In this document: piece by piece, positions 4,149-51,833 of the stretch
Position numbering within the stretch: position 1 is the stretch's first letter
Layout of the letters: the number at the start of each line of letters is the position of its first letter
Assembly: GCA_051278165.1 (NCBI GenBank)
Contig: JBNMNW010000001.1
Span: forward strand, 42,235 to 106,234
Direction of reading: 5' to 3'
DNA from: Planctomycetota bacterium
Lineage (GTDB): Bacteria > Planctomycetota > UBA1135 > UBA2386
Length of the DNA stretch: 64,000 nt
Notes under the pieces: model-generated
Seen by the model: the letters and a program-made list of their open reading frames with translations, nothing else
Databases searched by the model: none
Told to the model about the DNA's origin: nothing
Position numbers and translations under genes: made by a program

Positions 4149-4394
4149 CCGTCATTGCCAACGAACGAACTGGTCGAATAGGCTACGAGTTCGGTCCAGC
4201 AGGCAGCTGCCGTAGCCGGCAATCGGCCCCAGCAGTGCACGGAGGACAGGTATCGCCGAGGTACGCTTGACCGCGCAGACCCCAGTCCACGGCAATGACA
4301 AGTTGTGGCAAGGATGCAATGTCAACGGAACCTGACCCGGCTTTAGCCCGTCCTACCCGCGGCGCTGCCTCACCAACGCCCCACCCTCATCCAC

Positions 4395-36316: not shown

Positions 36317-37663
36317 TTGCGCAGCGGCCCATCAAGGCGGTGCGAGGATCTGGTCGATGTGATAGCCGTGGAACGCCTCGACATAGTCATTGCCAAAGAT
36401 GGCATGCAAGCAGAAGTCGTCCTTCGTCAAGGCCCAGCACTCAGCACAACTGAGCTAGCTGAGGCACTCGCAGCCGCTGGAGTTGTGCACGGGATCGATG
36501 CCGATGCCGTCACGCGTTTGTGCGCCGCCGCCTCGGAGACCCGAGAGATCGTCGCGCACGGCACCGTCGCCAAGCCTGGGCAAAACGAAGAACTGCGCGC
36601 AGAGGAGTGGCACCGCAAGCTGTCTGGCACGACGTTCCCATCGGGCAAGATCAATTACCGCGAACGACATTTCCTGCACCCGCTTACAGAAACCGACGTG
36701 TTGGGCACGATCACCGCACGCACGGACGGCGATGCCGGCAGAGATGTGCTCGGGCGTGAGTTACCGACCACCTCAGGCCAACCGCTTCACCAGCGCATCG
36801 GGGACGGCGCCATACGCAAAGGCAACTCGATCATCGCGCGACGCAACGGAGTCGCACTCGTCAACGAAGAATGGATCGACGTCGTGCCGCTCTACACGCA
36901 CAGCGGCAATGTCGACTATGCATCCGGCAACCTGCGAACGGCGGGGTCTCTACTGATCGAAGGGGAAGTAACAGTTGGGTTCCTAGCCGATGCCGATGGC
37001 GACATCGCCGTCATGGGCACGGTGCAAGGCGAAGTGCATGCCAAGGGATCCGTGATGATTGAACGAGGCATCTTGGGCAAGCAGACCGTGCGCGCCGGCG
37101 CAGACCTCACGTGCCACCACGCCACCAATGGCACGCTGCGGGCCGGCAACAACTTGGTGGTCGCCGACCAAAGCTCCCAATGCAGTCTGCATGCACGAAA
37201 CGTGCTCGTCATCGACGGTCGCGCCACCGTGCGCGGCGGACAGATCTGCGCCCGTGACCGCATCCTTGTCGGGACCGCGGGATCGGTGGCAGGCCCTCCC
37301 ACAGTCCTTGCCGTAGGCCAACTGTTAGACGAACGCGCCGAACTAGCGCGGCGCAACGCCGCGACCCATCGTGAATCGAGGCGCTCCAAACGATCACCAG
37401 ATCGCGGCCAAGCGAGCAAGAGCAATCGAATTGCCGTCAAAGCCAATGACCACGCACTGGCTGAGAAGCTGCGGCTGAAACGGCTGCAACGCGAGATTCT
37501 GCGCGAGGCGAGCATTCATGTCAGCAAGATGTGCTTCAGCGGCGTGAAGATCGAATTCGGCCAGTTCCGCCTGCAGGTAGATCACGACCTACGCGACGTC
37601 ACGTTCCGCTTCGATTTGGAAACAGACACGATTCGACACAACAGGCACGAGAACCCAGCATGA
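36317..37663 (+). CDS. FapA/DUF342-family protein
   Basis: Beta-helix-like repeats typical of DUF342: GNVDYASGNLRTAGSLLIEGEV, GDIAVMGTVQGEVHAKGSVMIERGI and LRAGNNLVVADQSSQCSLHARNVLVI. A C-terminal coiled coil is present. The real start may be GTG 36368 (VERLDIVIAKDGMQAEVVL). Confidence 0.75.
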   Translation: MRSGPSRRCEDLVDVIAVERLDIVIAKDGMQAEVVLRQGPALSTTELAEALAAAGVVHGIDADAVTRLCAAASETREIVAHGTVAKPGQNEELRAEEWHRKLSGTTFPSGKINYRERHFLHPLTETDVLGTITARTDGDAGRDVLGRELPTTSGQPLHQRIGDGAIRKGNSIIARRNGVALVNEEWIDVVPLYTHSGNVDYASGNLRTAGSLLIEGEVTVGFLADADGDIAVMGTVQGEVHAKGSVMIERGILGKQTVRAGADLTCHHATNGTLRAGNNLVVADQSSQCSLHARNVLVIDGRATVRGGQICARDRILVGTAGSVAGPPTVLAVGQLLDERAELARRNAATHRESRRSKRSPDRGQASKSNRIAVKANDHALAEKLRLKRLQREILREASIHVSKMCFSGVKIEFGQFRLQVDHDLRDVTFRFDLETDTIRHNRHENPA

Positions 37664-38064
37664 GCAACCTTCTAAAGCAACTGCTCGCCAGGGACGTCAT
37701 GAACGAAGGCATCCAATGGGCGGACAGCACCGAGAACCTGCGGACGGCCGGCAACCGCATGGCGAAACATCGCATTCGCACGCTGCTCGTACGGGGCCAG
37801 GACGAGCATGATCTGCCCGGTATTCTGTCGAGCAAGGATGTCGTCAACATGGTCGGTGCCCACGATCTTTCGGTGCTTGACGAACTGCACGTGGAAGACG
37901 CGTGTACCCGTCCGGCCATATGTGTTCCGGAAACCACACACTTACTCGATTGCATCAACCTGATGCGTATGGCGGGAGTGCGCCGCATGCCGGTCCTACG
38001 CGAAGGCAAGGTCGTCGGGATCCTCAGTCTCAGCGATGTCTTTGATCGCATCATGAAGAACTGA
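37660..38064 (+). CDS. CBS-domain-pair protein
   Basis: ATG 37660 overlaps the fapA-like stop (ATGA at 37660-37663). 134 aa with two CBS-like units (VMNEGIQWADSTENL...IRTLLV...GILSSKDVV; ICVPETTHLLDCINLM...VRRMPVLREGKVVGILSLSDV). Confidence 0.8.
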   Translation: MSNLLKQLLARDVMNEGIQWADSTENLRTAGNRMAKHRIRTLLVRGQDEHDLPGILSSKDVVNMVGAHDLSVLDELHVEDACTRPAICVPETTHLLDCINLMRMAGVRRMPVLREGKVVGILSLSDVFDRIMKN

Positions 38065-38138: not shown

Positions 38139-39110
38139 TCAAGCAACGGCCGATGCAGTTTCAACATCCTGCGTGCCAGAATCCTGAGTAGCTGAATCCT
38201 GAGTGCCTGAATCCTGCGCAGCTGGCCGGGCAACTCCTTGCCGCGAAACCGCGCGAACCGCCTTACCGGCATCCATCGCAGGTGCGCCGGCCAGCAGCCG
38301 GCCGAGATGTTCGTGGATGCGCTTGCGGGCGCGGAACACGACCATCTTTAACGCCTCTGGGCGGATGCCGAGGATCTGCGCGAGCTCTGCGTAACGCATG
38401 CGGCGCACCTCCACCATCTGCAGAACGAAGCGTTCGCGTTCGCCCAGACGCTGGAAGGCGACCAAGTAGGCTTGCAGCACAACTCCGAACGCCGCGGCTG
38501 TCGCCCGGCACTCTTCGTTGTTCTCTGCTTCCATGCTCGGCTCGCGCATCGACGTGTCAGCCTGCTCCTGCAGCGTTTCTGGATCGCGCAGAGTAATGCC
38601 TAGATCGCGCTTGCTACGGCGAAGGTGCCTGCGAATCGCGTTGTCGACGATCGTCGACGACCACGCGGCAAAGGCACCAGGTCGCGACGCCAGGAAGCGA
38701 TCGGGATATCGATAGATATTGACGATCGTGTCCTGCCAGACCTCACTGGGGTCCAGCATGGCGCCCAGTGATCGAAGCCGGGAGCGAACGCGAGCTCGCA
38801 GATGAGGGCCAGCCCAGCGAACCAGGCCGTCATAGGCCTCTGGGTCACGGGTCTTGCGGAAGGAATCCATTAAGGCTGTCGCGAGTGCGGCATCAGCGGT
38901 AGCTGAGTCGGCACTATCGAGCGGACCGTCACAACCGAGTTTCTCAAGAAGAGAGATCAGCTGTGCGCGGTTTCGCTCACGCTCAGAGAACGCTACTGAG
39001 CAACTAGCCAGATGCGAGGGGGAGCAGGTCATGGCGAACATCCCCTTGCGAAGGGTGGGCCAATGGGTCGCAAAAACGTCCCAGTAGGCGGGTATATGCT
39101 CCTTAAGCAT
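38139..39110 (-). CDS. sigma-70-family (ECF-type) RNA polymerase sigma factor with N-terminal extension and C-terminal QDS repeats
   Basis: The region-2-like segment is VWQDTIVNIYRYPDRF...AWSSTIVDNAIRRHLRR. The region-4 HTH is RERFVLQMVEVRRMRYAELAQILGIRPEALKMVVFRARKRI. The C-terminal AQDSGTQDSATQDSGTQD comes from 4 x 15-bp repeats at 38166-38225. Confidence 0.8.
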   Translation of the reverse strand: MLKEHIPAYWDVFATHWPTLRKGMFAMTCSPSHLASCSVAFSERERNRAQLISLLEKLGCDGPLDSADSATADAALATALMDSFRKTRDPEAYDGLVRWAGPHLRARVRSRLRSLGAMLDPSEVWQDTIVNIYRYPDRFLASRPGAFAAWSSTIVDNAIRRHLRRSKRDLGITLRDPETLQEQADTSMREPSMEAENNEECRATAAAFGVVLQAYLVAFQRLGERERFVLQMVEVRRMRYAELAQILGIRPEALKMVVFRARKRIHEHLGRLLAGAPAMDAGKAVRAVSRQGVARPAAQDSGTQDSATQDSGTQDVETASAVA

Positions 39111-39183: not shown

Positions 39184-41220
39184 TTGAGCGCCGTCACGTG
39201 CGGAGCCGAACAAAGGAGCAGGCCACACGTGACCAGCACAACTTCGTTCAATCGCGCCCACAATCCGCTGCGCCAGCTCCCTTCGGTGTTGGCGATGCCG
39301 GACTTACAGCGACGCCTCAGGCGCGTGATGGACGAGCAGGTGATCGACGAAGACGAGCTCGTGGCGCTCCTCAAGATTGACCCGCTAGCGGCTGTGCGCG
39401 GTCTGCGGGTCGCGAGCACCGCGATCTTCCGCCAGGCGAACGAACTGCCGACCGTACGCGGCATTGTGCGCAGCCTAGGCCCAACACTCAGCAAGAGGCT
39501 GTTCAGGCAGCCCGCCACAGACATCGCCGACTGCGATCAGCTGAAGAATCTGTGGCTCCACGCGATCGCAACGGCCCACGCGGCCAAAGAACTGGCCGCT
39601 CGCACCGGGTTGATCGATCCCGAGGTCGCCTACCTCGTCGGCCTGCTGCACGACCTGCCCGAATGGCTGCGTCGCCTCAACCAGATCGAGCCGGGTTCGG
39701 CTTCCAGCAACTTCCAACCGACGGATTGGATCCTCAACTGGCACCTGCCGGCACCGTTCGTATCGCTGATTCTGGCGATCGACATGGGCGACAAGCCTGC
39801 TTCGGCTGATGAACCACCCGACCCGGCAGGACTGATCCTCGCCGCAGAACTGCTTGCAGAACTCGCCGGCTACCATCACGACGAGCACGAGGCCGACCAC
39901 TCGCTGCACAACGCGCTGAAGATCGACCAGTCGGAATTGCTCGTGGTAGAGCAACTCGAAAAGAAGGTGGACGAGTCCCTGCAAGCCTTCGGGCTTGATC
40001 GAGCAGCGCCCAGAAACGAGTTGGTAGCAACCGATGAAGACCCCGCACCTGACGAGGCGAAAAGCAATATCGACCAAGTCGTAATGAGCATCCTCGGGTG
40101 CACACGATCCGAAAGTTACCGCGGCATCATCACCGTGCTGACCGCTGCATCCGTGCGCTACGGCAACTACGACCGCGCGTTCTACGCCAAGTGGCACGAC
40201 AAAAGTGCAACCTTGACGCTGCGCTCCAAGGCCGACTCCTCAGCGCGCCGCATGGTGCTAACGCGCCTCCAGGTTGCCGACCACGAAGCCGCACTCCTTC
40301 GCAGCGCGCTGGAGACGCAAACGCCTAGACACCTCGCGGTAGGGCCTAGCAAGGCCAATGGCTTGCTAGGCATGCTGTCAACCGACGAGCTGCTGGCAAT
40401 CCCGCTTAACTGTGATTTCGAATCACCGGCGTTCTTGCTGCTCGACCGCTCCGTCACGCTTACGCCGATCACCGCGTCGGCCGACATGACGATGGCGACC
40501 ATGCTCGGCATGACCGGCTCATTGCTAATCCAGAACCTGCTGCTTCGCCGCCGCCGCCAACGCGCTCAGAAGTTTGCCCTGACAGATCCGCTGACGAGGC
40601 TGTTCAACCGGCGCATGGGCATGTACGAGCTTGAGCAGGCCATCGCGCGCACCGGCCGTGACAGCCGCCCGCTGACTATCTTGATGTGCGATCTCGACCA
40701 CTTCAAGCGACTCAACGACACCCTCGGCCACGTCTGCGGCGATTCAGCTCTACGCGCGACCGCCGACGTGCTGCGTCACTCGGTGCGCAAGACCGACACC
40801 GTCTGTCGCTACGGCGGCGAAGAGTTCTTGGTCATGCTGCCCGACACCACTCCCGACGATGCAACCGTGCTCGCCGCTCGGATGTTCACCGCCGTGCATG
40901 CACGCGGCGAAGAATTGGGCCTGCCAATCACCATCTCCATTGGCCTGACGAGCCTCCGCCAAGACGACACGATGGAGTCTGTGCTGATCCGTGCCGACCA
41001 CGCGCTCTACGCCAGCAAAGGCTACGGACGCAACCGCTTCTCCGCTGACGTCGACTTCGACGACGACGACGACGACGAGCAAGCCGCAACGCCAGCTCCG
41101 ACTTCGAACGAACAACGCTCCGCCAAACAGCCAGCGGAAGCTAGCCCTTCCACCTCGGCGGTCGAACCAGCATCCCCCACCGGCGGCTCGGTTCCTGGCG
41201 ACAAGCAAGACGACGCCTAA
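39184..41220 (+). CDS. HDOD-domain / GGDEF-domain diguanylate cyclase
   Basis: The HDOD pattern is LKIDPLAAVRGLRVASTAIF...VRGIVRSLG...LWLHAIATAHAAKELA...AYLVGLLHDLPEWL. The GGDEF domain is DPLTRLFNRR...CDLDHFKRLND..GH..GD, with RKTD (I-site RxxD) 5 aa before GGEEF. It has a poly-Asp/acidic tail. Start is ambiguous (GTG 39229 with AGGAG upstream, or ATG 39295). Confidence 0.85.
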   Translation: MSAVTCGAEQRSRPHVTSTTSFNRAHNPLRQLPSVLAMPDLQRRLRRVMDEQVIDEDELVALLKIDPLAAVRGLRVASTAIFRQANELPTVRGIVRSLGPTLSKRLFRQPATDIADCDQLKNLWLHAIATAHAAKELAARTGLIDPEVAYLVGLLHDLPEWLRRLNQIEPGSASSNFQPTDWILNWHLPAPFVSLILAIDMGDKPASADEPPDPAGLILAAELLAELAGYHHDEHEADHSLHNALKIDQSELLVVEQLEKKVDESLQAFGLDRAAPRNELVATDEDPAPDEAKSNIDQVVMSILGCTRSESYRGIITVLTAASVRYGNYDRAFYAKWHDKSATLTLRSKADSSARRMVLTRLQVADHEAALLRSALETQTPRHLAVGPSKANGLLGMLSTDELLAIPLNCDFESPAFLLLDRSVTLTPITASADMTMATMLGMTGSLLIQNLLLRRRRQRAQKFALTDPLTRLFNRRMGMYELEQAIARTGRDSRPLTILMCDLDHFKRLNDTLGHVCGDSALRATADVLRHSVRKTDTVCRYGGEEFLVMLPDTTPDDATVLAARMFTAVHARGEELGLPITISIGLTSLRQDDTMESVLIRADHALYASKGYGRNRFSADVDFDDDDDDEQAATPAPTSNEQRSAKQPAEASPSTSAVEPASPTGGSVPGDKQDDA

Positions 41221-41295
41221 CGGGCCGAGCAGCTATACCCCTGCCGAAAGCACGTCGCCGCGTGGACAGATAGCCACCATCCTCGCCTTGCATTG

Positions 41296-41331
41296 GCTCA
41301 GGGTCTACGGGTTCGAAGCGAGGCCCTGAGC
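41296..41331. terminator. possible bidirectional hairpin between convergent genes
   Basis: GCTCAGGG (41296-41303) and CCCTGAGC (41324-41331) form the stem, with a 20-nt loop. There is no T-tract. Confidence 0.25.
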
Positions 41332-41337
41332 TGCAAG

Positions 41338-42300
41338 CTATTGCGCGTTCTTGCGTAGGAAGCTGCGCATCTTCTCGGCAATCTCCGCACCGTCTTCCTC
41401 GAGAGCGAAGTGACCGGTGTCCAAGAGGTGGAACTCCAGGTTCTTGAGGTCGCGCTTGTAGGGATGGGCACCGTCGGCCGGAAAGATGTGATCGTTCTTA
41501 CCCCATACGATCAGCGTCGGGGGTTGGTGCTTGCGCAGGTAGCTCTGCCATTCAGGGTAGAGCGCCGGATTGCTGCCATAGTCGTAGAACAGGGCAAGCT
41601 GGATCTCTTGGTTGCCCTCGCGATCGAGCAGGCGCTGATCGATGTTCCAGTTGTCGGGGCTGATCGTTGCCACGTTGCGCACTCCGTGGGTGTATTGCCA
41701 CTTGGTCGCGTCGATCGTGAGCAGGCTGCGCAGTGCGTCGGCGTTCTTGGTCGTCTTGTCGTTCCAGTAAGCCTTGATCGGCGTCCAGAACTCACGCAGG
41801 CCTTCGCTGTAGGCGTTGCCGTTCTGGATGATCAGCGCGTTGACGCGCTCCGGATGACGAGTGGCTAGACGGAAGCCAACCGGTGCCCCGTAGTCCATCA
41901 GGTAGATGCTGTAACTTGAGAGCTTGAGCTTCTCGGTGAACGCCTCGACGACGTTGGTCAAGTTGTCGAAGGTGTAGTCGAACTTGTCGACGGCAGGCAT
42001 CGAGCTGTTGCCAAAGCCGGGGTAGTCCGGGGCCACGACGTGGTATTCCTTCGCAAGCTCTGGGATCAGGTTGCGGAACATGTGCGACGACGTCGGGAAG
42101 CCGTGCAGCAGCAGCACGGTCGGCGCGGTGCTCGGGCCGGCCTCGCGGTAGAAGATCTCGAGGCCGTCGATCTTGACGGTCTTATGGAGGACTTGCGTGT
42201 TGGCGTCAGTCGGCTGCGGGACGGGCTGCGGATCCGCGAAGCTGGCGGCGACGGCGAAGAGCGGGAGTGCGATAGCAATCGCGGTTGTGAAGGTGTTCAT
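41338..42300 (-). CDS. secreted alpha/beta hydrolase of the epoxide-hydrolase/haloalkane-dehalogenase type (Asp nucleophile)
   Basis: Signal peptide [22 protein letters not shown]. The HGxP oxyanion motif is [13 protein letters not shown]. The nucleophile elbow is [10 protein letters not shown] (Sm-x-Asp-x-Sm). C-terminal GHFALEE supplies the catalytic His. Confidence 0.8.
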
Positions 42301-42343
42301 CGGTCTGGTCTCTTGGTAGCGGTAAGTAAAAGGTGAGGGTCAA

Positions 42344-42916
42344 TCAGGCGTTCGCCGGCGACTCTGGTCGCGTCCACGCGAATCGCTGGAACGATGCGTC
42401 GACCGGCGTCTCGGCAATGTGGTTGGCGAAGTTGCTGAGCGTCTTGAGGCTGATCCCAAGCACGACTTCGAGCACGTGTCGCTTCGTGTAGCCGGCGGCT
42501 AAGAACGCCTCGATGTCTGGCTCCGATACCACGCCGCGCATCTGCACGACCAGGCGTGTGAACGTGCGCAACGCTTCGAGCTTCGGCTCCTGGATTGCCG
42601 TGCCGTTGCGCACGCTATCGGTGACGTGCTGCGGCACATCTTGCATCGAGGCGATCGCGGAATGCGCCGCCATGCAGTATTCGCAGTTGTTCTCGAAGCT
42701 CGTCGTCAACAGCACGATCTGCAGTTCCGTCGGACTGAACAGCGAGGACTTGTTGAGGATCGAGCCGAGGCTGGCATAGGCCTCGACGATCGCCGGAGAC
42801 TCAGCGAGCACGCCGAACAGGTTGGGGATGGTGCCAAACTTCTGCTTGGCTTCTTTGAGCACCGGCTGCGATTGTGCCGGTGCGGATTCCATGGTGTGGA
42901 CTTCGAAAGTGGTCAT
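42344..42916 (-). CDS. carboxymuconolactone decarboxylase / AhpD-like family protein (CxxC)
   Basis: 190 aa. NCEYCMAAHS (CxxC followed by His) lies in an all-helical context typical of the AhpD-like core. Confidence 0.75.
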   Translation of the reverse strand: MTTFEVHTMESAPAQSQPVLKEAKQKFGTIPNLFGVLAESPAIVEAYASLGSILNKSSLFSPTELQIVLLTTSFENNCEYCMAAHSAIASMQDVPQHVTDSVRNGTAIQEPKLEALRTFTRLVVQMRGVVSEPDIEAFLAAGYTKRHVLEVVLGISLKTLSNFANHIAETPVDASFQRFAWTRPESPANA

Positions 42917-42976
42917 CGTTCTTGCTCTCTCTTGTTGGTTGGTTCGTTGGTGAGTTGCTTGGCTGCCGCTGACGGA

Positions 42977-43429
42977 TCAGGTGGAGCCAACGGCCTGGTA
43001 GCCGCGCCCCTCGGTGGCCGCCGCTCGCCGCTCGACGGGGATGAACGCTGCCAGCACTAGGCCAAAGCCGAGGTGTCGTGCGAGCGTGATGAACGGCATC
43101 GCGATGCCCGCTTCGATCCCGGCGATGCCGGCCCCGAGCAGCGGCAACATGAACAGCCACACACCGAAGACGGTCTCGGCGGTGACGTAGGTCAGGGCGC
43201 GGGTGACGCGCGAACCCCAAAGGGATGGCGCGACCGCGGCGTAGATGACGGCCAGCAGGGCGCCGTTGGCGTAGTGCGCAAACACGCCGGCTGTGGTCCC
43301 GGTGCCGAGCTTGGCGCCGAGCAGCTGCGGGATATCCCACCAGGCGCCGGTGATTAGCAGGCCGAGGATGTCGAACGCGAGGGTGCCGAGTAGGCCGGCG
43401 AGGATGGTGAGCTTCCAGTTGATCTTCAT
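42977..43429 (-). CDS. small 4-TM membrane protein of unknown function
   Basis: 150 aa with four hydrophobic segments. AGGA lies 7 nt upstream of the ATG. It is the first gene downstream of the predicted sigma-54 promoter. Confidence 0.65.
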   Translation of the reverse strand: MKINWKLTILAGLLGTLAFDILGLLITGAWWDIPQLLGAKLGTGTTAGVFAHYANGALLAVIYAAVAPSLWGSRVTRALTYVTAETVFGVWLFMLPLLGAGIAGIEAGIAMPFITLARHLGFGLVLAAFIPVERRAAATEGRGYQAVGST

Positions 43430-43464
43430 AGCGAGTCCTGCGGGTTAGGGTTCGACCGACCTAA

Positions 43465-43481
43465 AGCACAAGCCGTGCCAG
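43465..43481 (-). promoter_or_regulatory. sigma-54 (-24/-12) promoter
   Basis: The minus strand 43481->43465 reads CTGGCACGGCTTGTGCT, against consensus YTGGCACGrNNNTTGCW. GG and GC are correctly spaced and there is one mismatch (G for the first T of TTGC). It lies ~35 nt upstream of ATG 43429. Confidence 0.7.
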
Positions 43482-43548
43482 ACGCATAGAGAACTCATAA
43501 AGTTCTGATTCATAGCATCTTACGAGACATCACATCAACCAATCAAGG

Positions 43549-43604
43549 TGACGAAATATCGTTAATTTACGAGGAGTCGTGACTGACTCACGAAATATCG
43601 TAAG
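43549..43604. promoter_or_regulatory. two copies of imperfect palindrome ACGAAATATCGT (candidate enhancer/UAS for the sigma-54 activator)
   Basis: Copies lie at 43551-43562 and 43590-43601, spaced 39 bp. Each is ACGA-N4-TCGT (10 of 12 positions self-complementary). Their centres sit ~75 and ~115 bp upstream of the -24 element. Confidence 0.5.
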
Positions 43605-45207
43605 TTCAGACGTCATGGACAGCCTTGAAGGTGAGTTCGCGGAACTGATGCTGGAGATGCCCCAGCAGCGGACCTGCTCGGGCCTGCTGGACCTGATCGT
43701 GCGGCGGTTGAACCAGCGTGCCGGCACGGCGCTGGCGCGGATCTGGCTGGCGCTTCCGGGCGACATCTGCGACGCGTGCCACCTGGCTTCGGAGTGTCGT
43801 GATCGCACGACCTGCATGCATCTGGAAGCGAGCGCCGGCAAATCGCTCGTGGATGCCTCGGCGGACTGGTCCGCAACCGATGGCGCGTTTCGCCGGTTCC
43901 CAATGGGCGTGCGCAAGGTCGGCAAGATCGCTGCAACCCGGCAACCGGTCGAGGTGCCCGACATCACCGGCAACGAGAGTTGGATTGCTCGCCCCGAATG
44001 GGTCAAGGCCGAGGGCATCCGTGGCTTTGGTGGCCAGCCACTGCTCTTCAAAGGCGAAGTGCTCGGAGTCTTAGCGGTCTTTACGCGGGAGCCGCTCAAA
44101 CCGCACGCGCTGGTCGGCCTGCGCATGATCGCGGACCACGCCGCCATCGCGATCGCGAACGCCCGCGCCTTCGAGCAGATCGATGAACTGCGCGCCAAGC
44201 TCGAACTCGAGAACACCTACCTGCGCGAAGAAGTGCGCGAGGCCTCGATGTTTGGCGAGATCGTTGGCCAGAGCCCTGCCTTGCGGCACGTCATCGAGCA
44301 GATGGATCTCGTCGCAACAACATCCGCAACGGTCTTGATCACCGGCGAGTCCGGCACTGGCAAGGAACTAGTGGCCCGCGAGATCCATGATCGCAGCGGC
44401 CGTCGCGATTGCCCGATGATCAAGGTCAACTGCGCATCCGTGCCGCGCGAACTTTACGAGAGCGAGTTCTTCGGACATGTGAAAGGTGCGTTCACGGGAG
44501 CGGTGCAAGATCGCGTCGGACGCTTCGCCGCAGCCGACGGCGGCACCTTGTTCCTCGATGAAGTCGGCGAGATTCCTCTCGAACTGCAAAGCAAGCTGCT
44601 GCGTGTGCTGCAAGAAGGTGAGTACGAACGAGTCGGCGACGAGCGTACGCAGCAGGTCGACGTGCGCATCGTGGCCGCCACCAATCGCAACCTAAAGGCC
44701 GAGGTCGAAGCAGGACGATTTCGACAGGATCTCTACTACCGCTTAAACGTGTTCCCGCTGCTCGCTGTCCCCCTGCGCGATCGTCGTGATGACATTCCGC
44801 TGCTAGCCGAGCACTTCCTGAAGAAGGCCGCTCGCGGCATGAATCGGCCGATTCCAAAGCTGACCAAGGCGGGCGTTGCGCAGCTCCAGAGCTACCAATG
44901 GCCTGGCAATGTGCGTGAACTACAGAACGTGATCGAACGCTCGGTCATCACGTCAACGGGCCGCTCGCTGCGATTTGATTTGCCAACAGAACCCGAAGCC
45001 GCGCGCGGTGAGGATGGCGCCAAGGAAGTGCGCGTCATCGCCACGGATGCCGAGATGAAGCGTCGAGAGCGCAGCAATCTCACGGCCGCGCTTGAGGAGA
45101 CTCGCTGGAAGATATCAGGTGCCGGTGGCGCAGCAGAACTACTCGGCATTCGCGCCACAACGTTGACGTCACGCCTCAAGAAACTTGGCATCGAGCGCGG
45201 GCTCTAG
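43579..45207 (+). CDS. sigma-54-dependent transcriptional activator (GAF sensor, AAA+ domain, Fis-type HTH)
   Basis: The GAF-like N-terminal domain contains [19 protein letters not shown]+ motifs are [29 protein letters not shown] and RVIAATN. The C-terminal HTH is [21 protein letters not shown]. The start is either GTG 43579 or ATG 43615. Confidence 0.9.
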
Positions 45208-45216
45208 CGCCTGCTG

Positions 45217-45241
45217 CTGATCGGCGTCGTCAACCGATCAG
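45217..45241. terminator. possible hairpin between the convergent activator and blh genes
   Basis: CTGATCGG (45217-45224) and CCGATCAG (45234-45241) form the stem, with a 9-nt loop. There is no T-tract. Confidence 0.25.
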
Positions 45242-45307
45242 CTAACCCTGCTAGTCGTGGTTACCAAGCCCAATCACTACCCAGACTTTCGCCAAGATCC
45301 TAGCCAC

Positions 45308-46237
45308 TCACATCGAGCCGGGCTGGACACGCAGGGAGCGCCGCAGCGCGTCGGTTACGATCAGGTGCGGCACCGTTAGCGACGCCAGGCCGATGAACAC
45401 CATCTGCAGCCAGCGTCGCAGCGGCACCTGATCAGTCGGCAGCATGACCCAAACCAGAGCGCCAGCAGCGATGGTCGCGACCGTCATCGGCAGCGCGGAC
45501 CAACCGAAGCCGCCGAGCGCGCGCAGCCAAGGTCCAGGGCGCAGTTCTTGCGCGACGACCAGGATGTGACGCGGCGCATGCCAGATGCAAAAGTAGAGAC
45601 CGAACGACAGCAGCGGCGGCAGCAGCAGCCCAGCGACGGCCACTGCGAGGACTTCGACGAGCTCGCCCGCAGCACGGCGGGGCCGAAACACGAAGGCAGC
45701 CAGCATCAAGCTTGTCGCCAACAGCAGCGCTGGCCTTGCCTGACGCAGGATGTCATTCCACGCGGCGGCGTCACCATTGGTCAGCAGCGAGAACAGCTCG
45801 CCGACCGCTTCCGGATGAGCAATCGCTGGCATCAGAATCGGCAAGCTGCCGTGCACGAGCACTCCGAGTGGATCCTTCGCATCGCCGGTTCCAAAGTGAT
45901 GAACGGACATCACCAAAAAGACCACGAGGCTCACCGTCGGCAGCAGCCACCAGACAATGGCTACGGCGAGTGCCAGGGCCACATAGCCAAGCAGAAACGT
46001 CGGCAGCCAGATTGGCCCCAGCCGGCCGCGCAGAATCGGCGCCATGCGATGATGATCGACCGCGCCGTGCGGCACGCCGGTCAGCAACACTCCCACCCCG
46101 AGCAAGATCGCCTGCACGTGCGGTTCGAGATGGCTCGCCGGACCGGCGAAGAGCACGGCGCAAACGGTAGCTAGCAACGCGATGCGTCGATGGCGGCGGC
46201 CAGCCGCACGTTCGTCGATCGTAGCCACGGCGCTCAT
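45308..46237 (-). CDS. blh: Brp/Blh-family beta-carotene 15,15'-dioxygenase (retinal synthesis)
   Basis: Polytopic membrane protein with the conserved His sites GVPHGAVDHH, SVHHFGTGD and WHAPRH. The preferred start ATG 46237-46235 overlaps the crtY stop (ATGA). Confidence 0.85.
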   Translation of the reverse strand: MSAVATIDERAAGRRHRRIALLATVCAVLFAGPASHLEPHVQAILLGVGVLLTGVPHGAVDHHRMAPILRGRLGPIWLPTFLLGYVALALAVAIVWWLLPTVSLVVFLVMSVHHFGTGDAKDPLGVLVHGSLPILMPAIAHPEAVGELFSLLTNGDAAAWNDILRQARPALLLATSLMLAAFVFRPRRAAGELVEVLAVAVAGLLLPPLLSFGLYFCIWHAPRHILVVAQELRPGPWLRALGGFGWSALPMTVATIAAGALVWVMLPTDQVPLRRWLQMVFIGLASLTVPHLIVTDALRRSLRVQPGSM

Positions 46238-47415
46238 GCGGACCGCACCCACAGTCGCAGCGAGCGCATTGATTCACGGAGCATCGGCAGCTTGGGTAGC
46301 GCCATCGCGACCGCTGCCGCATCGCGCAGCGTGCTGCGGTCGGAGAGAAATCGCACCAGCACGTCCGGAGCCACCTTCTCAAACATGTGCAAGAACAGCT
46401 GCGGCATGCGCGCCGGATCGCGGCGCATGAACGCTAGGAACATACGATCCATCGCCAGCGCGCGGGCACTGCGTGGTGCTTGGCCGGTTGGCTTGCGGCC
46501 AGCGGCAAGATCCTCAGCAACCGCACGCGACCAGCGCTGCACCGCTTCGAACGAATACCCAGTGCTCGGCTTGACCAATCCTCCCGCAGTGCCGATTGGA
46601 ATCACGCGGGCATCTTCGGCTGGCACCAGCCGGCGCCGTGTGCTCATCGGCACGCGGCCGCGCTCCGTCGCGAGGATCTCGTAGGAGGGGCCACCGAGCA
46701 CCTCGCTGAAGTGCCCATGCAGCATCGCCTCGTGCTCAGCATCGGCAACCGCCGCCGGAGCAAACGCTGTCGCCTCGACCAGCGCTTCGTTCTGCGAGAA
46801 AGGCAACACGTACACGAAGCGCACGTCCGCGTCGCTCGCGTGGAAGCGCATCAGCGTCACAGTCTGAGCATCAAAGACCGGCTCTTCACTGCGTACGTGC
46901 CAGCCGAGGAAGTCCTGCACCCAATCGACCTCGTCACGATCGACGGTCGCGGTGGGCGGTTGCAATCGACTATCGAACACCATCGACGCCGACAGCACTT
47001 CGCCGCTCGCGACCTCGACCTCGGCCGCCTCGCCGACGTCACGCACCTCGCGCACGGCGCAACCGAGCCGCAACTCAGCGTTGGACGCCGCTGCGAGCCG
47101 CCGCAGCGCTTCGTCATAGAGCCGCCCCGAAGGGATGCAACGATACGGCTGACTGTCGCAACTCTGCACGTGCTCGCGGCCGTCAGCGGCAACCCGCCAG
47201 CGGGTCCACGAGTTTTCGATACAGTTGGTGAACGGGTGCGTTGGCTGGGCCCAACTGCACCAAAAGCGGTCGTGGCGATACTCGGTGCGCGCTTCGAGGA
47301 CCAACAGCCGACGCTCGCCGATGCCCTGCTCAAGCAAATGGCACGCTAGGCTTAGACCGGCAAGACCACCACCAACGATGATGATGTCCGCAGCTAGCTT
47401 GCGATCGGCACTCAT
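46234..47415 (-). CDS. crtY: lycopene beta-cyclase (CrtY type)
   Basis: N-terminal FAD fold DIIIVGGGLAGLSLA, ~390 aa, with the PIGTAGGLVKPSTGYSF motif. It sits between crtB and blh, and its start overlaps the crtB stop (ATGA at 47412-47415). Confidence 0.85.
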   Translation of the reverse strand: MSADRKLAADIIIVGGGLAGLSLACHLLEQGIGERRLLVLEARTEYRHDRFWCSWAQPTHPFTNCIENSWTRWRVAADGREHVQSCDSQPYRCIPSGRLYDEALRRLAAASNAELRLGCAVREVRDVGEAAEVEVASGEVLSASMVFDSRLQPPTATVDRDEVDWVQDFLGWHVRSEEPVFDAQTVTLMRFHASDADVRFVYVLPFSQNEALVEATAFAPAAVADAEHEAMLHGHFSEVLGGPSYEILATERGRVPMSTRRRLVPAEDARVIPIGTAGGLVKPSTGYSFEAVQRWSRAVAEDLAAGRKPTGQAPRSARALAMDRMFLAFMRRDPARMPQLFLHMFEKVAPDVLVRFLSDRSTLRDAAAVAMALPKLPMLRESMRSLRLWVRSA

Positions 47416-48380
47416 GCTGGATCGATTTCGGGCAAGCCGTGCAGATCCGCATGCAACCTAGGATCGTGAGAAGCCGTCGGCCCGCTCGGCCAGAAACGCG
47501 GATAGATCACGAGAGCAGAGAGTGCGCGCGCCGTGTGCCAAAGCTTGCCGCCAGCGTTCACATGACAGCGCCGCTGCCAGTAGTCCGGACCGCGGCGTCG
47601 AATGACGGCGCCAATGCCTTCATAGATGCGGCTCGCGGCCAGGATCGCCGCGCGGGCGCGCCATGGCAGGTAGCGCATGCCGTGGTCGGCGCTGCGGTAA
47701 TAGAGCGCCGCGAGATCGAGCACATCTGCCACCGCCGACCGCGCGTCCGAGCGCACGCCAACGCTGTCGTGACGCAGAGACTCGGACGAAATGTGCTTAG
47801 CCATAGGCACGTAGATGCGGCCTCGGCCAGCGTCTTCGAGCACGTCACGTGAGATGTTGGTCAGCTGCATCGCGATGCCTAGATCGATTGCGAACGCCCG
47901 CCCCCGGCGGTCGCTGCAGCCAAGCACGTCGCACATCATCAGCCCGACTGTCGACGCGACCCCAAAGGCATAGCGCACCAGCTGCCGACGATCACGAAAC
48001 CGCACGGCTCCGGTGTCACGCTGCAGCGTGTCGAGCAGCACGTCGACCACAACCGGGTCGATGCGGCAGCGCTGCATGAGTGCGGCGAAGGCGCTGACCA
48101 CGTCGACTGCGACCGACGGGCCTGATTCGTCCCCACCCGCCAGACGGGCGCGCAGCGCGACGATCTCGGCCCGTCCCTCGACCGGCGGTAGTTCGTCGAC
48201 GAGATCGTCGGCGTGGCGACAGAACGCATAGAGTGTTGCCGCGTCTTGAGCATGCTGCTTCGTCAGGAACGCACTCGCCCAGTGGAAGCTGCGACCGTGA
48301 TGGGCCAGAACAGCCGCAGAGTCGCTAGCGGCCATTGGCTGACCTCTAGGCTGACTCGCTGCCGGAACCGGGCTCGCCAT
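47412..48380 (-). CDS. crtB: phytoene synthase
   Basis: GRSFHWASAFL, YAFCRHADDLVDE (first Asp-rich motif) and NISRDVLEDAGRGRIY (second). The preferred start ATG 48380-48378 shares 1 nt with the crtI stop. The tracked ORF 5' extension overlaps crtI. Confidence 0.9.
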   Translation of the reverse strand: MASPVPAASQPRGQPMAASDSAAVLAHHGRSFHWASAFLTKQHAQDAATLYAFCRHADDLVDELPPVEGRAEIVALRARLAGGDESGPSVAVDVVSAFAALMQRCRIDPVVVDVLLDTLQRDTGAVRFRDRRQLVRYAFGVASTVGLMMCDVLGCSDRRGRAFAIDLGIAMQLTNISRDVLEDAGRGRIYVPMAKHISSESLRHDSVGVRSDARSAVADVLDLAALYYRSADHGMRYLPWRARAAILAASRIYEGIGAVIRRRGPDYWQRRCHVNAGGKLWHTARALSALVIYPRFWPSGPTASHDPRLHADLHGLPEIDPA

Positions 48381-49990
48381 CAGCGCACCACGCGGCCCGC
48401 ATTGCCAGCCTGAAACACATCTGGCGACGGCACAACCCGGTCGAGCACCTTCGCCGACGAAAGCACCCCTGGCACACCCGCGCCGGGATGCGTGCCTGCT
48501 CCGACCAGGAACAAGTTCTCGAGCTCTTCCGAGCGGTTGTGGAAGCGGAACCATGCTGACTGCTGCAGCAGCGGTTGGATCGAGAAGCCGGCACCGTTGA
48601 CCGACAGGTAGCGATCTCCGAAATCCTGCGGCGTCATGTGGAAGCGCACCGCCAGCGATTCGCGCAGTCCTGGCATCATGGTGCGCTCGAGCGCCTCCAG
48701 GATGCGATCGCCATATGACTCGGCCTGTTCCGACCAGTCGATGCCTGATTTGAGGTTGGGCACTGGCGACAGCACGTAGAACGTGTCACATCCCGGCGGC
48801 GCCATGCCTGGATCGGTCGCGGTCGGCCGATGCAGATACAGGCTGAAGTCGTCAGACAGCACCTTCTTCTCGAAGATATCGTGCAGCAGCCCGCGGTAGC
48901 GCGGCCCCATCGAGATCGTGTGGTGCGCGATGTCCGAGTACTGCCGACGGGTGCCAAAGTGCAGCACGAACAATCCCATCGAGTAGCGCAGGCGGTCGAG
49001 CTTGCGCTTGGTCCAGCGACGCTTCTTGCCCGGCACCATGCTGCGGTAGAGGTGGGGCGCATCCGCATTGCTGACCACGATATCGGCGGGCAGTTCACGG
49101 CCGCCTGCCAGCAGCACGCCGGTTGCCCGACCTCCGTCAGTCGTGATCTGCTCGACGGTCTCGCCGAGCCGCACTTCGATGCCCTGGCGCTCCATCAAGG
49201 ACCCGAGAGCCTTCACCAACGCGCCGGTGCCGCCCATCGGAAAGTGCACGCCCCACTGTCGTTCGAGGAAGTGGATTAGCGAGTAGATCGACGTCGTATC
49301 AAATGGGTTGCCGCCAACCAGCAGCGGCTGGATACTGAACGCTTGCCGCAGCTGCGGGTTCTTCAGGTGGCGTTTGACGAGGCCGTAGACGGACCGGTCG
49401 CTACGCAACCGCAACAGCTGTGGCAGCAGCTTGAGCATGGTCGAGAACCGGTCAAATGGACGGTCTGCCAGGCCCGTGAAGCCAACATCGAAGATCCGCT
49501 TACTCGTTTCGAGCAGCTTCAAGTAGCCCGCCTGATCGCGTGGCTCGAAGCGAGCAATCTCCGCTAGCGTCTGTTCAATGGTGCCGCCGTAATCAAACGT
49601 TTTGCCGTCGTCAAAGCGAAACCTATACCAAGGCTCTACCGGTCGCAGATCCACGTGATCTGCCATGTTCTCGGAGAACAGTGAGAACAATTCTTCTAAT
49701 AGAAAAGGTGCGGTGATGACGGTTGGGCCACCGTCAAAAACAAAGCCATCGCGCTCGAACACCTGCGCGCGCCCACCGAGCATCGGGCAACGATCGACGA
49801 GTGTGACGCGATAGCCCCGGGCCCGCAAACGCAGAGCCGCAGCCATGCCCCCGAAGCCGGCGCCGATCACCACCGCGTGAGCTCCCTGGCCGGATGCGGC
49901 GAAGGCCGTGCCGCGTCCTATCGTTTGCGCGCCATCGATTGGGACGCCATCCTTCGGAACCCCGCTCGGCCGGACTTGCGAGGTTGTCAT
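48380..49990 (-). CDS. crtI: phytoene desaturase
   Basis: N-terminal dinucleotide fold AVVIGAGFGGMAAALRL. About 536 aa. C-terminal LVGAGTHPGAGVPGVLSSAK is typical of CrtI. Confidence 0.92.
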   Translation of the reverse strand: MTTSQVRPSGVPKDGVPIDGAQTIGRGTAFAASGQGAHAVVIGAGFGGMAAALRLRARGYRVTLVDRCPMLGGRAQVFERDGFVFDGGPTVITAPFLLEELFSLFSENMADHVDLRPVEPWYRFRFDDGKTFDYGGTIEQTLAEIARFEPRDQAGYLKLLETSKRIFDVGFTGLADRPFDRFSTMLKLLPQLLRLRSDRSVYGLVKRHLKNPQLRQAFSIQPLLVGGNPFDTTSIYSLIHFLERQWGVHFPMGGTGALVKALGSLMERQGIEVRLGETVEQITTDGGRATGVLLAGGRELPADIVVSNADAPHLYRSMVPGKKRRWTKRKLDRLRYSMGLFVLHFGTRRQYSDIAHHTISMGPRYRGLLHDIFEKKVLSDDFSLYLHRPTATDPGMAPPGCDTFYVLSPVPNLKSGIDWSEQAESYGDRILEALERTMMPGLRESLAVRFHMTPQDFGDRYLSVNGAGFSIQPLLQQSAWFRFHNRSEELENLFLVGAGTHPGAGVPGVLSSAKVLDRVVPSPDVFQAGNAGRVVR

Positions 49991-50994
49991 TCTGCCACCT
50001 CAAAAGAAGTGTCGGAGTCATCACCCGTACGGGTGCAGGCGGGCAAACTGCGCTCGAAGCGCAGCACTTCGCCATGAAGCAGCCCGACGCAGTCGGCGGG
50101 CAGGACAGACCAGCAGCTACGCGCCGCCGTCAGCAGTTCGTCAATGCGCGCTATGGTGCGCTCGATCGCTCCGCTTTCGCGGATGGCCCGAACCCATGGC
50201 ATGACATCGGCGGTGCGCCGCTCGCGAGCCGAGAGCAACTGAAGTAGATGCTCTTTGCTCGATTGTGTGGTGTGCTCAAGAAAGTCGATCGCGGGCCACG
50301 TGAGTTTGCCTTCGCGCAGATCAGCTCCCGCTTCACCGCGTTGCTTCCGGTCGAGTAAATCGGCGACGTCATCGGCTAGCTGGTAGGCGGTGCCGAGCAA
50401 CAGCCCACCTTCACGCATCGCCGCAACGTCGCGTTCTTTGAGACCGGCCAGGATCGCCGCGCACTCGAGTGGCAGCGCCAGCAGCGGCCCCGTCTTGTCG
50501 CTAGCGATGCGCTCGTAGCGATCTCGTTCAAGACTCAGATCTTCGCGGTGCAGAATCTCATCTGACTGACCGCACGCTATCCGACTGGTCGCGACAGCGA
50601 ACACCTGCACGAGCCGGATGCGCCGCTCGGCTGGCGCCGGCAGCTTGGCTAAACATGCAAACGCACACGCCAAAAGATGGTCACCAAGGTTGATGGCGAC
50701 AGGCTCGCCGAAGCGAACCCACACCGTTTCGCGACCACGTCGCAGGACATCTCTATCCTGAATATCGTCGTGTACTAACGACGCGTTATGCAGCAATTCA
50801 CAAGCCACGCCGAGGTCGCGTGCGCCTGGCGTATCAACGCCAAGGCGCGACGCGACCGTCTGCGCGAGGCCGCCCCGCAATTGCTTGCCTGGGCGGGCTA
50901 AGTGGTATCGAGCAGCGGCACCAAGGATGCCTCCGAGGCGGGCGGCTTGCTGAACGCTCTCGTGAAGGATTTCCTGCTGATCGACTGCTGACAT
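49987..50994 (-). CDS. crtE: polyprenyl (geranylgeranyl) diphosphate synthase
   Basis: LLHNASLVHDDIQDRD (first DDxxD) and YQLADDVADL (second). GAGGTG lies 7 nt upstream of the ATG. The stop overlaps the crtI start (ATGA at 49987-49990). Confidence 0.88.
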   Translation of the reverse strand: MSAVDQQEILHESVQQAARLGGILGAAARYHLARPGKQLRGGLAQTVASRLGVDTPGARDLGVACELLHNASLVHDDIQDRDVLRRGRETVWVRFGEPVAINLGDHLLACAFACLAKLPAPAERRIRLVQVFAVATSRIACGQSDEILHREDLSLERDRYERIASDKTGPLLALPLECAAILAGLKERDVAAMREGGLLLGTAYQLADDVADLLDRKQRGEAGADLREGKLTWPAIDFLEHTTQSSKEHLLQLLSARERRTADVMPWVRAIRESGAIERTIARIDELLTAARSCWSVLPADCVGLLHGEVLRFERSLPACTRTGDDSDTSFEVAE

Positions 50995-51044
50995 AGCGTG
51001 TCACCTCATTACTGGGTTTCGTGATCCAGACATCCGGGCCGCGC

Positions 51045-51833
51045 TTACGCGGCCTTGCTCGAAGCTTCCGATCCGTCGGAACCAACCACGTAGCCGTCGG
51101 CATCAGACTTCTCGCGAGCGATGAAGTAGATGTAGATGCCGAGACCGACCTTCGCAGTAATGTCGGCGATCGTGTAGCCAACTTGCAGCGTCACTTGGCC
51201 AGCAGAGTCGCTGAGGCCCAGCACCGTCGCCAAGTAAGCAATCGGGTAGAAGCTCCAGGTGATCAGGATCAGGCCGCGTGCCTTCTTGATGATCGGTTGC
51301 ACCGAGCTCGGCTGGCTGTTGACAGCGCTACCGAACGTCGTGAACAGGGTGAACATGATGAACAGGAACGGGATCATCGATAGCACCCACCAGAGCCATT
51401 TACCGCCGGCTTCGGTTGCAACTTCGCCGGGGTAGCCGAGCACGATCATCAACGCCGCCGCGATCGACAGACGCATCGACATGCTGCGTGAGGCTACCTT
51501 GGCTAGGCCCAATACAGCGACCAGTTCGATCACCAAAAGCGGCACGGTCAACAGCCAGTCGGCATAGCGATAGGCATCGTTAAACAGCTCGCCAGACGCA
51601 ACATAGTTGCCATCCACGAGCATGTAGGAAGCGTCAAAGCTGTGGGCGATTCGGAAGTAGTGGTAGCACGCGATCGTTGGCACGAGGGCCGAGATCAGTA
51701 GCGCTGGGCGATACTTCGGTGCGACTTGCGAGCGGGAGAAGAAGAAGAACAGCGCGCCAGCAAACATCGCCGCAATGCAGAGCGACATGACGTTGTAGAC
51801 GAGGCTGAACTCGGTAGGAGTTAAGGTTGGCAT
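51045..51833 (-). CDS. microbial (type 1) rhodopsin, xanthorhodopsin/Gloeobacter-rhodopsin clade, predicted outward proton pump
   Basis: The preferred start is ATG 51833-51831 (MPTLTPTEFSLVYNV; 262 aa, 7 TM). Helix C is RYADWLLTVPLLVIE (D92/T96/E103 = DTE). H58 lies in CYHYFRI. Helix G is YTIADITAK (D224, Schiff-base K228). It aligns without gaps, at a constant offset of 29, to Gloeobacter rhodopsin recalled from memory. Confidence 0.93.
   Translation of the reverse strand: MPTLTPTEFSLVYNVMSLCIAAMFAGALFFFFSRSQVAPKYRPALLISALVPTIACYHYFRIAHSFDASYMLVDGNYVASGELFNDAYRYADWLLTVPLLVIELVAVLGLAKVASRSMSMRLSIAAALMIVLGYPGEVATEAGGKWLWWVLSMIPFLFIMFTLFTTFGSAVNSQPSSVQPIIKKARGLILITWSFYPIAYLATVLGLSDSAGQVTLQVGYTIADITAKVGLGIYIYFIAREKSDADGYVVGSDGSEASSKAA

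Follow-up and report, generated by a model that had tools for sequence, protein, structure and literature searches.

GAF-type sigma-54 activators that sense a reactive species by a mechanism that is understood are so far represented only by NorR (NO) and PexR (H2O2). In Escherichia coli, NorR (b2709) is encoded divergently from norVW, three dyad sites lie in the shared intergenic region, and its GAF domain acts as an inhibitory sensor (PMC2941729, PMC12754779). PexR (MXAN_1565) of Myxococcus xanthus, an H2O2-sensing bacterial enhancer-binding protein (bEBP) of the GAF-AAA+-helix-turn-helix (HTH) type, was described in December 2025 as a non-canonical stress regulator; it recognizes three CACCG-N6-CGGTG repeats, which double as operators for a sigma-A promoter, and activates katB and the divergently encoded ahpCD operon, both from sigma-54 promoters (PMC12754779). 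The GAF domain of PexR is autoinhibitory and binds Zn2+/Fe2+ via H102, H120, C122 and D140, the metal being lost on H2O2, and its authors equate this pocket with that of NorR and stress the NorR parallel, including the three similarly placed enhancer sites (PMC12754779). Here, we analysed a locus of this kind in a 64,000-nucleotide stretch (hereafter the window) of contig JBNMNW010000001.1 from Planctomycetota bacterium, in which a gene for a GAF-AAA+-HTH activator diverges from three genes encoding a four-transmembrane (4-TM) protein, a CMD/AhpD-like protein and an alpha/beta hydrolase.

We propose that this locus is a self-contained sigma-54 switch of the NorR/PexR type, in which a GAF domain with a four-cysteine insertion (Cys4-GAF) serves as an inhibitory sensor of oxidants or electrophiles, and we hold this reading to be probable. 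Its parts differ in strength: the architecture of the switch seems to us nearly assured, the thiol/metal redox nature of the signal is about an even call, and the same balance applies to a detoxification role of the operon. The NorR/PexR precedent of an autoinhibitory metal-binding GAF domain, three dyad sites and a divergent target supports the switch reading. The initial annotation of this DNA had suggested an inducible unit for redox or electrophile stress; the four-cysteine insertion and the target genes found across the family are consistent with that suggestion, which we retain in this qualified form.

On the minus strand, the sequence CTGGCACGGCTTGTGCT (43481..43465) forms a -24/-12 element in which 10 nt separate GG from GC. 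It deviates by one mismatch from TGGCAC-N5-TTGCW, the initial annotation having likewise given one mismatch from the longer form YTGGCACGrNNNTTGCW, and its core TGGCACGGCTTGTGCT (TGGCAC-N5-GTGC) occupies 43480..43465. Between the end of the motif and the ATG at 43429 there are 35 nt, in agreement with the distance to the first gene in the initial annotation, and an AGGA lies 7 nt upstream of the same ATG. By the convention that places GC at -12, transcription is predicted to start near 43454, which would leave a leader of approximately 25 nt. Other one-mismatch matches to TGGCAC-N5-TTGCW are found in the window at 7556-7571 (plus strand), 35015-35030 (minus) and 61664-61679 (minus). We discarded the match TGGCGCGGATCTGGCT at 43733-43748 (plus strand), which is sigma-54-like by score and lies inside the activator gene, as coding sequence of the conserved peptide ALARIWL; a match of this type recurs in most orthologues of the activator and constitutes a recurrent false positive in motif scans.

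Between this element and the activator gene lie three interrupted palindromes. The initial annotation had listed two copies of ACGAAATATCGT, and both are exact (site 3, proximal, 43551-43562; site 1, distal, 43590-43601), but the array has a third, middle member, site 2, ACGAGGAGTCGT at 43569..43580 (the minus strand reads ACGACTCCTCGT), that it had missed and that was found by a search for the palindromic core ACGA-N4-TCGT. In each site, to which no strand is assigned, the palindrome is limited to the outer 4+4 bases. Relative to the predicted start, sites 1, 2 and 3 are centred at approximately -141, -120 and -102, respectively, and their start-to-start spacings are 21 and 18 bp. On the activator side, site 1 stops 13 nt short of the ATG, and on the promoter side, site 3 lies 72 nt before the T of TGGCAC. 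The core ACGA-N4-TCGT occurs four times in the 64 kb against 1.4 expected, and three of the four copies fall within 51 bp. When we read the E. coli norR-norV region directly, it showed three GTCA-N3-TGAC sites spaced by 21 and 24 bp and a TGGCAC 56 nt after the third, and the array in the window follows the same plan, with 18 bp as its second spacing and 72 nt as its gap to the promoter.

We then asked how far this geometry is shared. An alignment of the GAF domain alone, for which the DNA sites were not used, led to 80 metagenome loci, which together with the loci found through the 4-TM protein gave 83 non-redundant loci. Sites were counted in the 160 nt upstream of the activator start, with at most one mismatch in the eight specified bases. 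At least two sites (two to four each) were present in 73 of the 83 loci and at least three in 41; a middle site at a spacing of 17-22 bp was likewise counted in 41 of 83. The density upstream of the activator was 13.5 sites per kb, 37-fold higher than the 0.36 per kb in the remainder of these loci, and the spacing peaked at 17-18 and 21-22 bp, as well as at 38-40 bp in arrays with a degenerate middle site. The -24 element (the best GG-N10-G(C), of the form TGGCAC-N5-nTGC) starts 69-74 nt past the last site in 49 of 58 non-redundant loci, with a mode of 72 nt that is also the value in the window, although the search extended over 150 nt beyond the last site and the distance was not imposed. No other single observation speaks as strongly for promoter and sites being parts of one functional unit as this fixed, unimposed distance. 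It also bears out the enhancer-type placement claimed by the initial annotation, and the GG-N10-GC element and the palindromes, whose conservation in orthologous regions that annotation had proposed as a check, do recur there.

When the spacers of 48 loci were aligned on the -24 element, only two dinucleotides proved to be conserved, AA at -41/-40 (69 and 79% A) and TT at -20/-19 (65 and 81% T), counted from the T of TGGCAC. In the window (43498..43521, minus strand), these are AA at 43521/43520 and TT at 43500/43499, 21 bp apart, which may mark a bend or a site for integration host factor (IHF). An IHF-like match, AATCAGAACTTTA at 43510..43498 (minus strand), overlaps the TT, and such matches occur in the spacers of 16 of 54 loci versus 8% of shuffles; a protein-induced or intrinsic bend in the spacer is a reasonable supposition. 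An inverted repeat TAAG-N17-CTTA in the spacer was considered as a general element and rejected, as it is present in only 6 of 48 loci. In one locus (L167), a second three-site array (ACGACTATTCGT, ACTAGATTTCGT and ACGATTCTTCGC, 3166-3216, spacing 22 and 17 bp) lies approximately 1.7 kb from the activator-proximal array, and from its presence some genomes may have more than one regulated promoter.

A second sample was obtained by scanning one genome per species with the 4-TM protein, which gave 80 loci from Bacteroidota, Rokubacteria, Verrucomicrobia, Acidobacteria, Planctomycetes and Campylobacterota. A hydrolase orthologue (55-74% identity) was encoded on the same strand within 2.5 kb in 45 of these loci, a CMD protein in 47, and one or the other in 65. 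The activator is encoded in only 10 of the 80 loci. Every one of these has a TGGCAC-type element in the intergenic region, and all but one have two or three (C)ACGA-N4-TCGT(G) palindromes. The closer relatives of the window, with 4-TM proteins that are 72-81% identical, retain the four-gene layout, and in Bacteroidota the same target genes occur without the activator and without the sites, with TetR or Crp regulators as neighbours. The exceptional locus (L010, Pirellulaceae, approximately 1080-1290) has a PAS-type activator beside 4-TM and CMD genes and carries palindromes with a related but altered half-site (TCGCAA-N4-TTGCGA and CGCAA-N4-TTGCG), which suggests a diverged DNA specificity within the same system.

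Three acidobacterial loci (L035, L052 and L060, approximately 4240-6010) encode paralogous activators in which a PAS domain with the conserved motif H-H-S-H-x-D-G-S-x-Y-P-x-E-E-C-P-I (HHSHADGSHYPxEECPIY) replaces the Cys4-GAF. These loci share the AAA+/HTH part, the three ACGA-N4-TCGT sites, the TGGCAC promoter and the 4-TM and hydrolase targets. There, the activator and its targets are read in one direction, and the sites, placed after the activator stop codon, keep the usual distance to the promoter that follows them. Because the sensor is swapped while the sites are unchanged, the DNA sites belong to the output half (AAA+/HTH) of the activator. The exchange also suggests that the Cys4-GAF and the acidobacterial PAS sensors may report a related cue.

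In the window, the activator gene extends over 43615..45207 on the plus strand and encodes 530 amino acids. ATG 43615 is most likely the start because gene callers use it in near-identical contigs, whereas the upstream GTG at 43579 is unlikely; with this start, all three sites lie inside the 185-bp intergenic region. Pfam searches confirmed the predicted GAF-AAA+-HTH architecture, for which only the start had to be revised: the GAF domain matched PF01590 (E 6e-18), the AAA+ sigma-54 interaction domain (44260..44760) matched PF00158 (Sigma54_activat, E 9e-73, residues 228-394 of the 542-aa open reading frame (ORF)) and was accompanied by AAA_lid_14, and the C-terminal Fis-type HTH (45067..45186), the presumed reader of ACGA-N4-TCGT, matched PF02954 (HTH_8, E 5e-5). 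This HTH is retained in orthologues whose loci have the same sites. The Walker motifs, GESGTGKE, GAFTGA and LFLDEVGE can be read in the translation. Against the curated equivalog models for NifA, FhlA and NorR, the activator scored below every cut-off, and the matches came mostly through the AAA+ part. The source annotations are generic, such as 'transcriptional regulator with GAF, ATPase, and Fis domain', 'hypothetical protein' and 'pimeloyl-ACP methyl ester carboxylesterase'.

The distinguishing feature of the sensor domain is the insertion C52-D-A-C55-H-L-A-S-E-C61-R-D-R-T-T-C67, followed by M-H-L (43768..43815, plus strand). Among 41 family members, C52, C55 and C61 are at least 90% conserved and C67 is invariant, which places them among the best conserved positions of the GAF domain, and the family motif reads P-G-D-I-C-x2-C-x5-C-x5-C-L-H-L-x-A-S-x-G. 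The motif is also present in orthologues from Rokubacteria and Verrucomicrobia. According to the AF2 model (pLDDT 92), it forms a loop between the first two strands (residues 38-48 and 66-75). A Foldseek search with the GAF model returned a standard GAF fold, with ligand-binding GAF domains such as PtsP and the cAMP-binding Lcd1 as nearest neighbours; it found generic GAF neighbours only and no specific redox-GAF relative.

A wide search with the GAF domain yielded 268 representatives at E <= 1e-30. Among the top 150 of these, 65 of the 144 newly returned proteins have the strict four-cysteine motif, and several proteins that fail the strict pattern nevertheless have all four cysteines. The Cys4-GAF stands at the head of one PAS-HisKA-HATPase histidine kinase (P0291) and one Ser/Thr protein kinase (P0274), and in some longer sigma-54 activators (P0245, P0247, P0264, P0269, P0273 and P0286) it is followed by additional GAF or PAS domains. 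This reuse ahead of kinases and additional sensor domains indicates a portable, independent sensor module. We put forward, as a tentative proposal that falls slightly short of evenly balanced, that the Cys4-GAF is an unrecognised portable thiol/metal sensor for reactive oxidants or electrophiles whose bEBP form drives an undescribed, widespread detoxification regulon from a rigid three-site enhancer, a third branch beside NorR (NO) and PexR (H2O2).

The three genes read away from the activator lie on the minus strand with intergenic gaps of 60 and 43 nt, in which a scan of 41200-45400 predicted no terminator. The gene that follows the trio is convergent to it, and a three-gene operon appears to be the simplest reading. 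The first gene (42977..43429) encodes a 150-aa membrane protein for which the AF2 model (pLDDT 92) shows four long helices and one short one, in line with the four transmembrane segments called initially. It gave no PDB fold match and no DoxX match in Pfam, and its score against DUF2938 (PF11158) was 20.2, below the gathering threshold of 31.4. Sub-threshold DUF2938 matches were obtained for 31 of 32 members of the 4-TM family, as were matches to DUF6789 and DUF1440, and the family may be taken as a distant relative only of these three. Its mean column identity is 54%, and the invariant residues include D20, W31, K40, H52, Y53 and H119.

The second gene (42344..42916) encodes a 190-aa protein with the motif C-E-Y-C-M-A-A-H and PDB matches to 6e8l (AhpD, E 8e-39) and 3lvy (E 2e-37). 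Homology and the C-x-x-C-x-x-x-H motif place it in the AhpD/CMD superfamily, as the initial annotation had done, at scores below the curated cut-offs (20.9 versus 23 for Pfam CMD and 55.9 versus 81.8 for TIGR01926). In a rokubacterial locus (L004, 2768-3534), part of the 3' half of the CMD gene is repeated almost exactly behind the gene, together with the preceding ribosome-binding region, which is either a tandem duplication or an assembly artefact.

The third gene (41338..42300) encodes a 320-aa alpha/beta hydrolase (Abhydrolase_1, E 2e-34) with HGFP, MDYG and a His in GHFALEE, motifs that would be compatible with an enzyme of the epoxide hydrolase type; from its hydrophobic N-terminus, a signal peptide is plausible. 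Haloalkane dehalogenases align at E 5e-24, and in the alignment with DhaA the Asp of MDYG falls on the nucleophile, as had been predicted, and HGFP on the oxyanion-hole motif. An assignment as haloalkane dehalogenase was nevertheless rejected, as NF002938 scored 116.6 versus a cut-off of 241 over the N-terminal half only and the halide-binding Trp and Asn are missing (D-Y not D-W, HGFP for HGNP).

To describe what the activator family controls, we counted operon content by homology in 43 non-redundant loci in which at least 1.5 kb follow the promoter. Members of the window's hydrolase family (ABH) were found in 22 loci, PNPOx-like proteins in 20, DUF1348/SnoaL-like proteins in 17 and the 4-TM protein in 11, while CMD proteins were counted 24 times, 17 of a second type (CMD_B) and 7 of the type present in the window (CMD_A). 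Less frequent were DUF5069 (5 loci), isochorismatase-like and YHS-domain proteins (4 each), MOSC, thioredoxin, Zn-dependent dehydrogenase and nitroreductase (3 each), and GST and NmrA-like proteins (2 each). The first operon position is most often taken by a CMD gene. By their gene content, these operons look like mosaics of thiol, flavin and hydrolase functions as found in electrophile, quinone or organic-peroxide responses rather than a linear pathway, and the trio in the window would be one variant of this mosaic set. The only functional hint in the literature searched concerns a DUF1348 protein, which has been linked to cercosporin resistance in a fungus. The carriers of the activator are mostly aerobic marine and soil bacteria, with some from groundwater; they are largely known from uncultured members of several phyla, and complete genomes that have the activator include those of Desulfosarcina alkanivorans and Rhodopirellula sp. 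SM50.

In the mechanism that we envisage, the activator would bind the three ACGA-N4-TCGT sites through its Fis-type HTH, probably as dimers, while in the resting state the N-terminal GAF domain would hold the AAA+ domain inactive. The C-x2-C-x5-C-x5-C motif may coordinate a metal (Zn2+ or an Fe-S cluster) or form a redox-active thiol cluster, and oxidation or alkylation of the cysteines by a reactive oxidant or electrophile would lift the inhibition. The activator would then assemble on the three sites, and ATP hydrolysis would open the sigma-54 closed complex at TGGCAC-N5-GTGC, probably assisted by DNA bending in the 72-nt spacer, so that the 4-TM/AhpD-like/hydrolase operon is transcribed from approximately 43454. 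Because site 1 ends so close to the activator's own ATG, the bound activator probably also autoregulates its gene. The products would detoxify or repair electrophile or organic-peroxide damage at the membrane and periplasm. Observed directly are the sequence elements with their conserved spacing, the domain layout, the conserved cysteines and the gene families that accompany the activator; binding of the activator to the sites, sigma-54 dependence, the transcription start, the cofactor, the signal and the roles of the three products are deduced from these.

Several observations weigh against the switch that we propose. Motifs of the type TGGCAC-N5-TTGCW with at most one mismatch occur four times in the window versus 3.07 expected, which is chance level, and we therefore rejected the motif count alone as promoter evidence. 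No rpoN was found among the window ORFs scanned. A few family members (L086, P0257, P0298 and P0299) have lost two or three of the cysteines and kept the sites and targets, so the cysteines may be structural or dispensable. AhpC, catalase and CCP are absent from the recurrent operon families of the 43 loci, and as neither AhpC nor catalase recurs, peroxide is not obviously the cue. Finally, identical copies of the four proteins appear under metagenome-assembled genomes labelled Planctomycetota bacterium, Hyphomicrobiaceae bacterium and Neolewinella sp.; because of these conflicting labels, the taxonomic assignment is unreliable, and the source is uncultured.

The chance-level count, together with the high-scoring 'promoter' in the activator gene that merely codes ALARIWL, raises the possibility that the GG-N10-GC match is fortuitous and that the operon is read from an unrecognised sigma-70 promoter. 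We regard this as scarcely credible, as the interval between the element and the sites is constant even across distant phyla in which the spacer is otherwise unconserved, a scan of 41200-45400 found no sigma-70-like promoter, and a sigma-54 activator is encoded alongside. It is also very unlikely, if a shade less so, that the ACGA-N4-TCGT sites are operators of another factor, or serve only the autoregulation of the activator, and do not act as a sigma-54 enhancer. The position of site 1, 13 nt from the activator ATG, means that the sites must overlap that gene's own promoter, and the PexR sites double as sigma-A promoter operators; yet the sites are found only where the AAA+/HTH module is encoded, with any sensor, and are absent at the same targets without the activator. 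In addition, the distance to the -24 element is fixed within approximately 5 nt in 49 of 58 loci, as expected of an enhancer, and in Acidobacteria, where the sites come after the activator stop codon, this distance to the promoter is likewise kept.

The nature of the signal leaves more room for alternatives, two of which we consider improbable to a similar degree. The GAF domains of bEBPs such as FhlA bind small ligands, and the domain studied here could be a pocket for an organic inducer, for example a substrate of the hydrolase (an epoxide, halogenated compound or lactone), with the four cysteines forming a structural zinc knuckle and the operon a dedicated catabolic or resistance pathway in place of a stress response. 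The standard fold near the ligand-binding PtsP and Lcd1 is compatible with this, as are the members that retain sites and targets without most of the cysteines; the 55-74% identity of the hydrolase across phyla suggests a specific substrate, and the CMD-family protein Bmp8, a debrominase, is among the PDB matches of the CMD protein in the window (6ohi). However, the operons vary in composition and draw on generic redox and detoxification families without amounting to a fixed pathway, a PAS sensor with a His/Cys-rich motif can stand in for the GAF domain before the same targets, the cysteines rank among the best conserved positions of the domain, and the Cys4-GAF is reused in kinases unrelated to these enzymes. 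Alternatively, the four cysteines could bind an Fe-S cluster, and the activator could report O2, NO, superoxide or Fe-S/iron status in the manner of Wbl, NsrR/IscR, VnfA or OrpR, and not electrophiles by way of thiol chemistry. In spacing, C-x2-C-x5-C resembles the [4Fe-4S] motif of Wbl proteins, and C-x5-C-x5-C that of the Rrf2 regulators IscR and NsrR. The sensor domain of the bEBP OrpR holds an Fe-S cluster (cited in PMC12754779), and the GAF domain of CSK/Hik2 binds a [3Fe-4S] cluster (PMC6949291). Against this, the CSK/Hik2 domain, which we considered as a relative and set aside, lacks a cysteine motif of this kind; most carriers are aerobic, and neither Fe-S assembly nor NO-detoxification genes are among the targets. 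Four cysteines of such spacing bind Zn equally well, as in Hsp33 and RsrA (PMC12754779).

The surroundings of the locus contain further gene groups. A complete retinal/rhodopsin cluster on the minus strand (45308-51965) is convergent to the activator gene and comprises blh (45308-46252), lycopene cyclase (46234-47415), phytoene synthase (47412-48554), phytoene desaturase (48380-49990), polyprenyl synthase (49987-50994) and a bacteriorhodopsin-like gene (51045-51965). The cluster is next to the activator in the near-identical contigs L092-L094 but not in the more distant L081 and L083, and a tie between the switch and photo-oxidative stress, though conceivable, has no support. Beyond the opposite end of the operon lie genes for a FapA-like protein (36317-37663), a CBS-domain protein (37531-38064), a sigma-70 region-2 (ECF-like) protein (38139-39110) and an HDOD-GGDEF diguanylate cyclase (39184-41220), the last of which is convergent to the hydrolase gene.

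If the proposed oxidant- or electrophile-responsive switch is correct, it would constitute a new stress-sensing branch of the GAF bEBP family, provide a functional handle on abundant families (the 4-TM protein, DUF1348, the hydrolase family and PNPOx-like proteins) and offer a compact promoter/activator pair that could be converted to a biosensor. Three sites, a 72-nt spacer and two conserved dinucleotides would make a clean model for the nucleation of a bEBP hexamer by three dimers. We found no description of the regulon, the DNA code or the sensor motif in the literature searched, mostly without subscription journals, and this agrees with the remark of the initial annotation that the gene combination is not a described regulon; NorR and PexR are nearest.

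Among more distant systems, VnfA/AnfA, OrpR and rhizobial NifA resemble the activator in being sigma-54 activators with conserved cysteines in a sensor or linker for redox or metal sensing. In VnfA/AnfA, these cysteines are found at the very N-terminus and in NifA behind the AAA+ domain, whereas OrpR has its cluster in a PAS domain; the targets are nitrogenase or cell-division genes. To our knowledge, none of the redox-sensing bEBPs has a C-x2-C-x5-C-x5-C-L-H insertion. In gene types, the operons resemble the regulons of MhqR/YodB/CatR in Bacillus subtilis and NemR in E. coli, which include nitroreductase, quinone/NAD(P)H oxidoreductases, a carboxylesterase-type alpha/beta hydrolase, the DoxX-like four-helix MhqP/CatD and thioredoxin-linked functions. 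These regulators are MarR/DUF24/TetR-type repressors of sigma-70 promoters, and the families concerned are not orthologous to those found here. With Hsp33, RsrA and Wbl, the likeness is one of cysteine spacing only: clustered cysteines that could release a metal and form disulfides on oxidation, a comparison discussed in PMC12754779, would be shared, whereas the folds and outputs are unrelated.

NorR has the same GAF-AAA+-HTH order, and its AAA+ domain is 51% identical to that of the activator in the window. An identification as NorR was rejected, since NF003451 scored 374.2 versus a cut-off of 476 with a match over residues 152-507 only. The GAF domains of the two proteins gave no BLAST alignment, and an hhalign comparison places a gap opposite two iron ligands of NorR, D96 and D99, and pairs the other two, C113 and D131, with G139 and the invariant F156, respectively; conversely, the Cys4 insertion is absent from NorR. 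NorR reads GTCA-N3-TGAC (GT-N7-AC) and targets flavorubredoxin genes, in contrast to ACGA-N4-TCGT and the CMD, hydrolase and 4-TM genes here. PexR resembles the present system in its GAF activator, its three tandem interrupted palindromes, a divergent antioxidant operon that includes AhpD, and sites that overlap the regulator-proximal promoter region. By its published description, however, the metal pocket of PexR is NorR-like with a single Cys, whereas the window family has four in an insertion of the beta1-beta2 loop; the sites are (C)ACGA-N4-TCGT(G) here versus CACCG-N6-CGGTG, and PexR targets ahpC, katB and ccp. The operating principle is known from NorR and PexR and the logic is the same, while the metal ligands of the sensor, here putatively four cysteines, the DNA sites and the target set differ.

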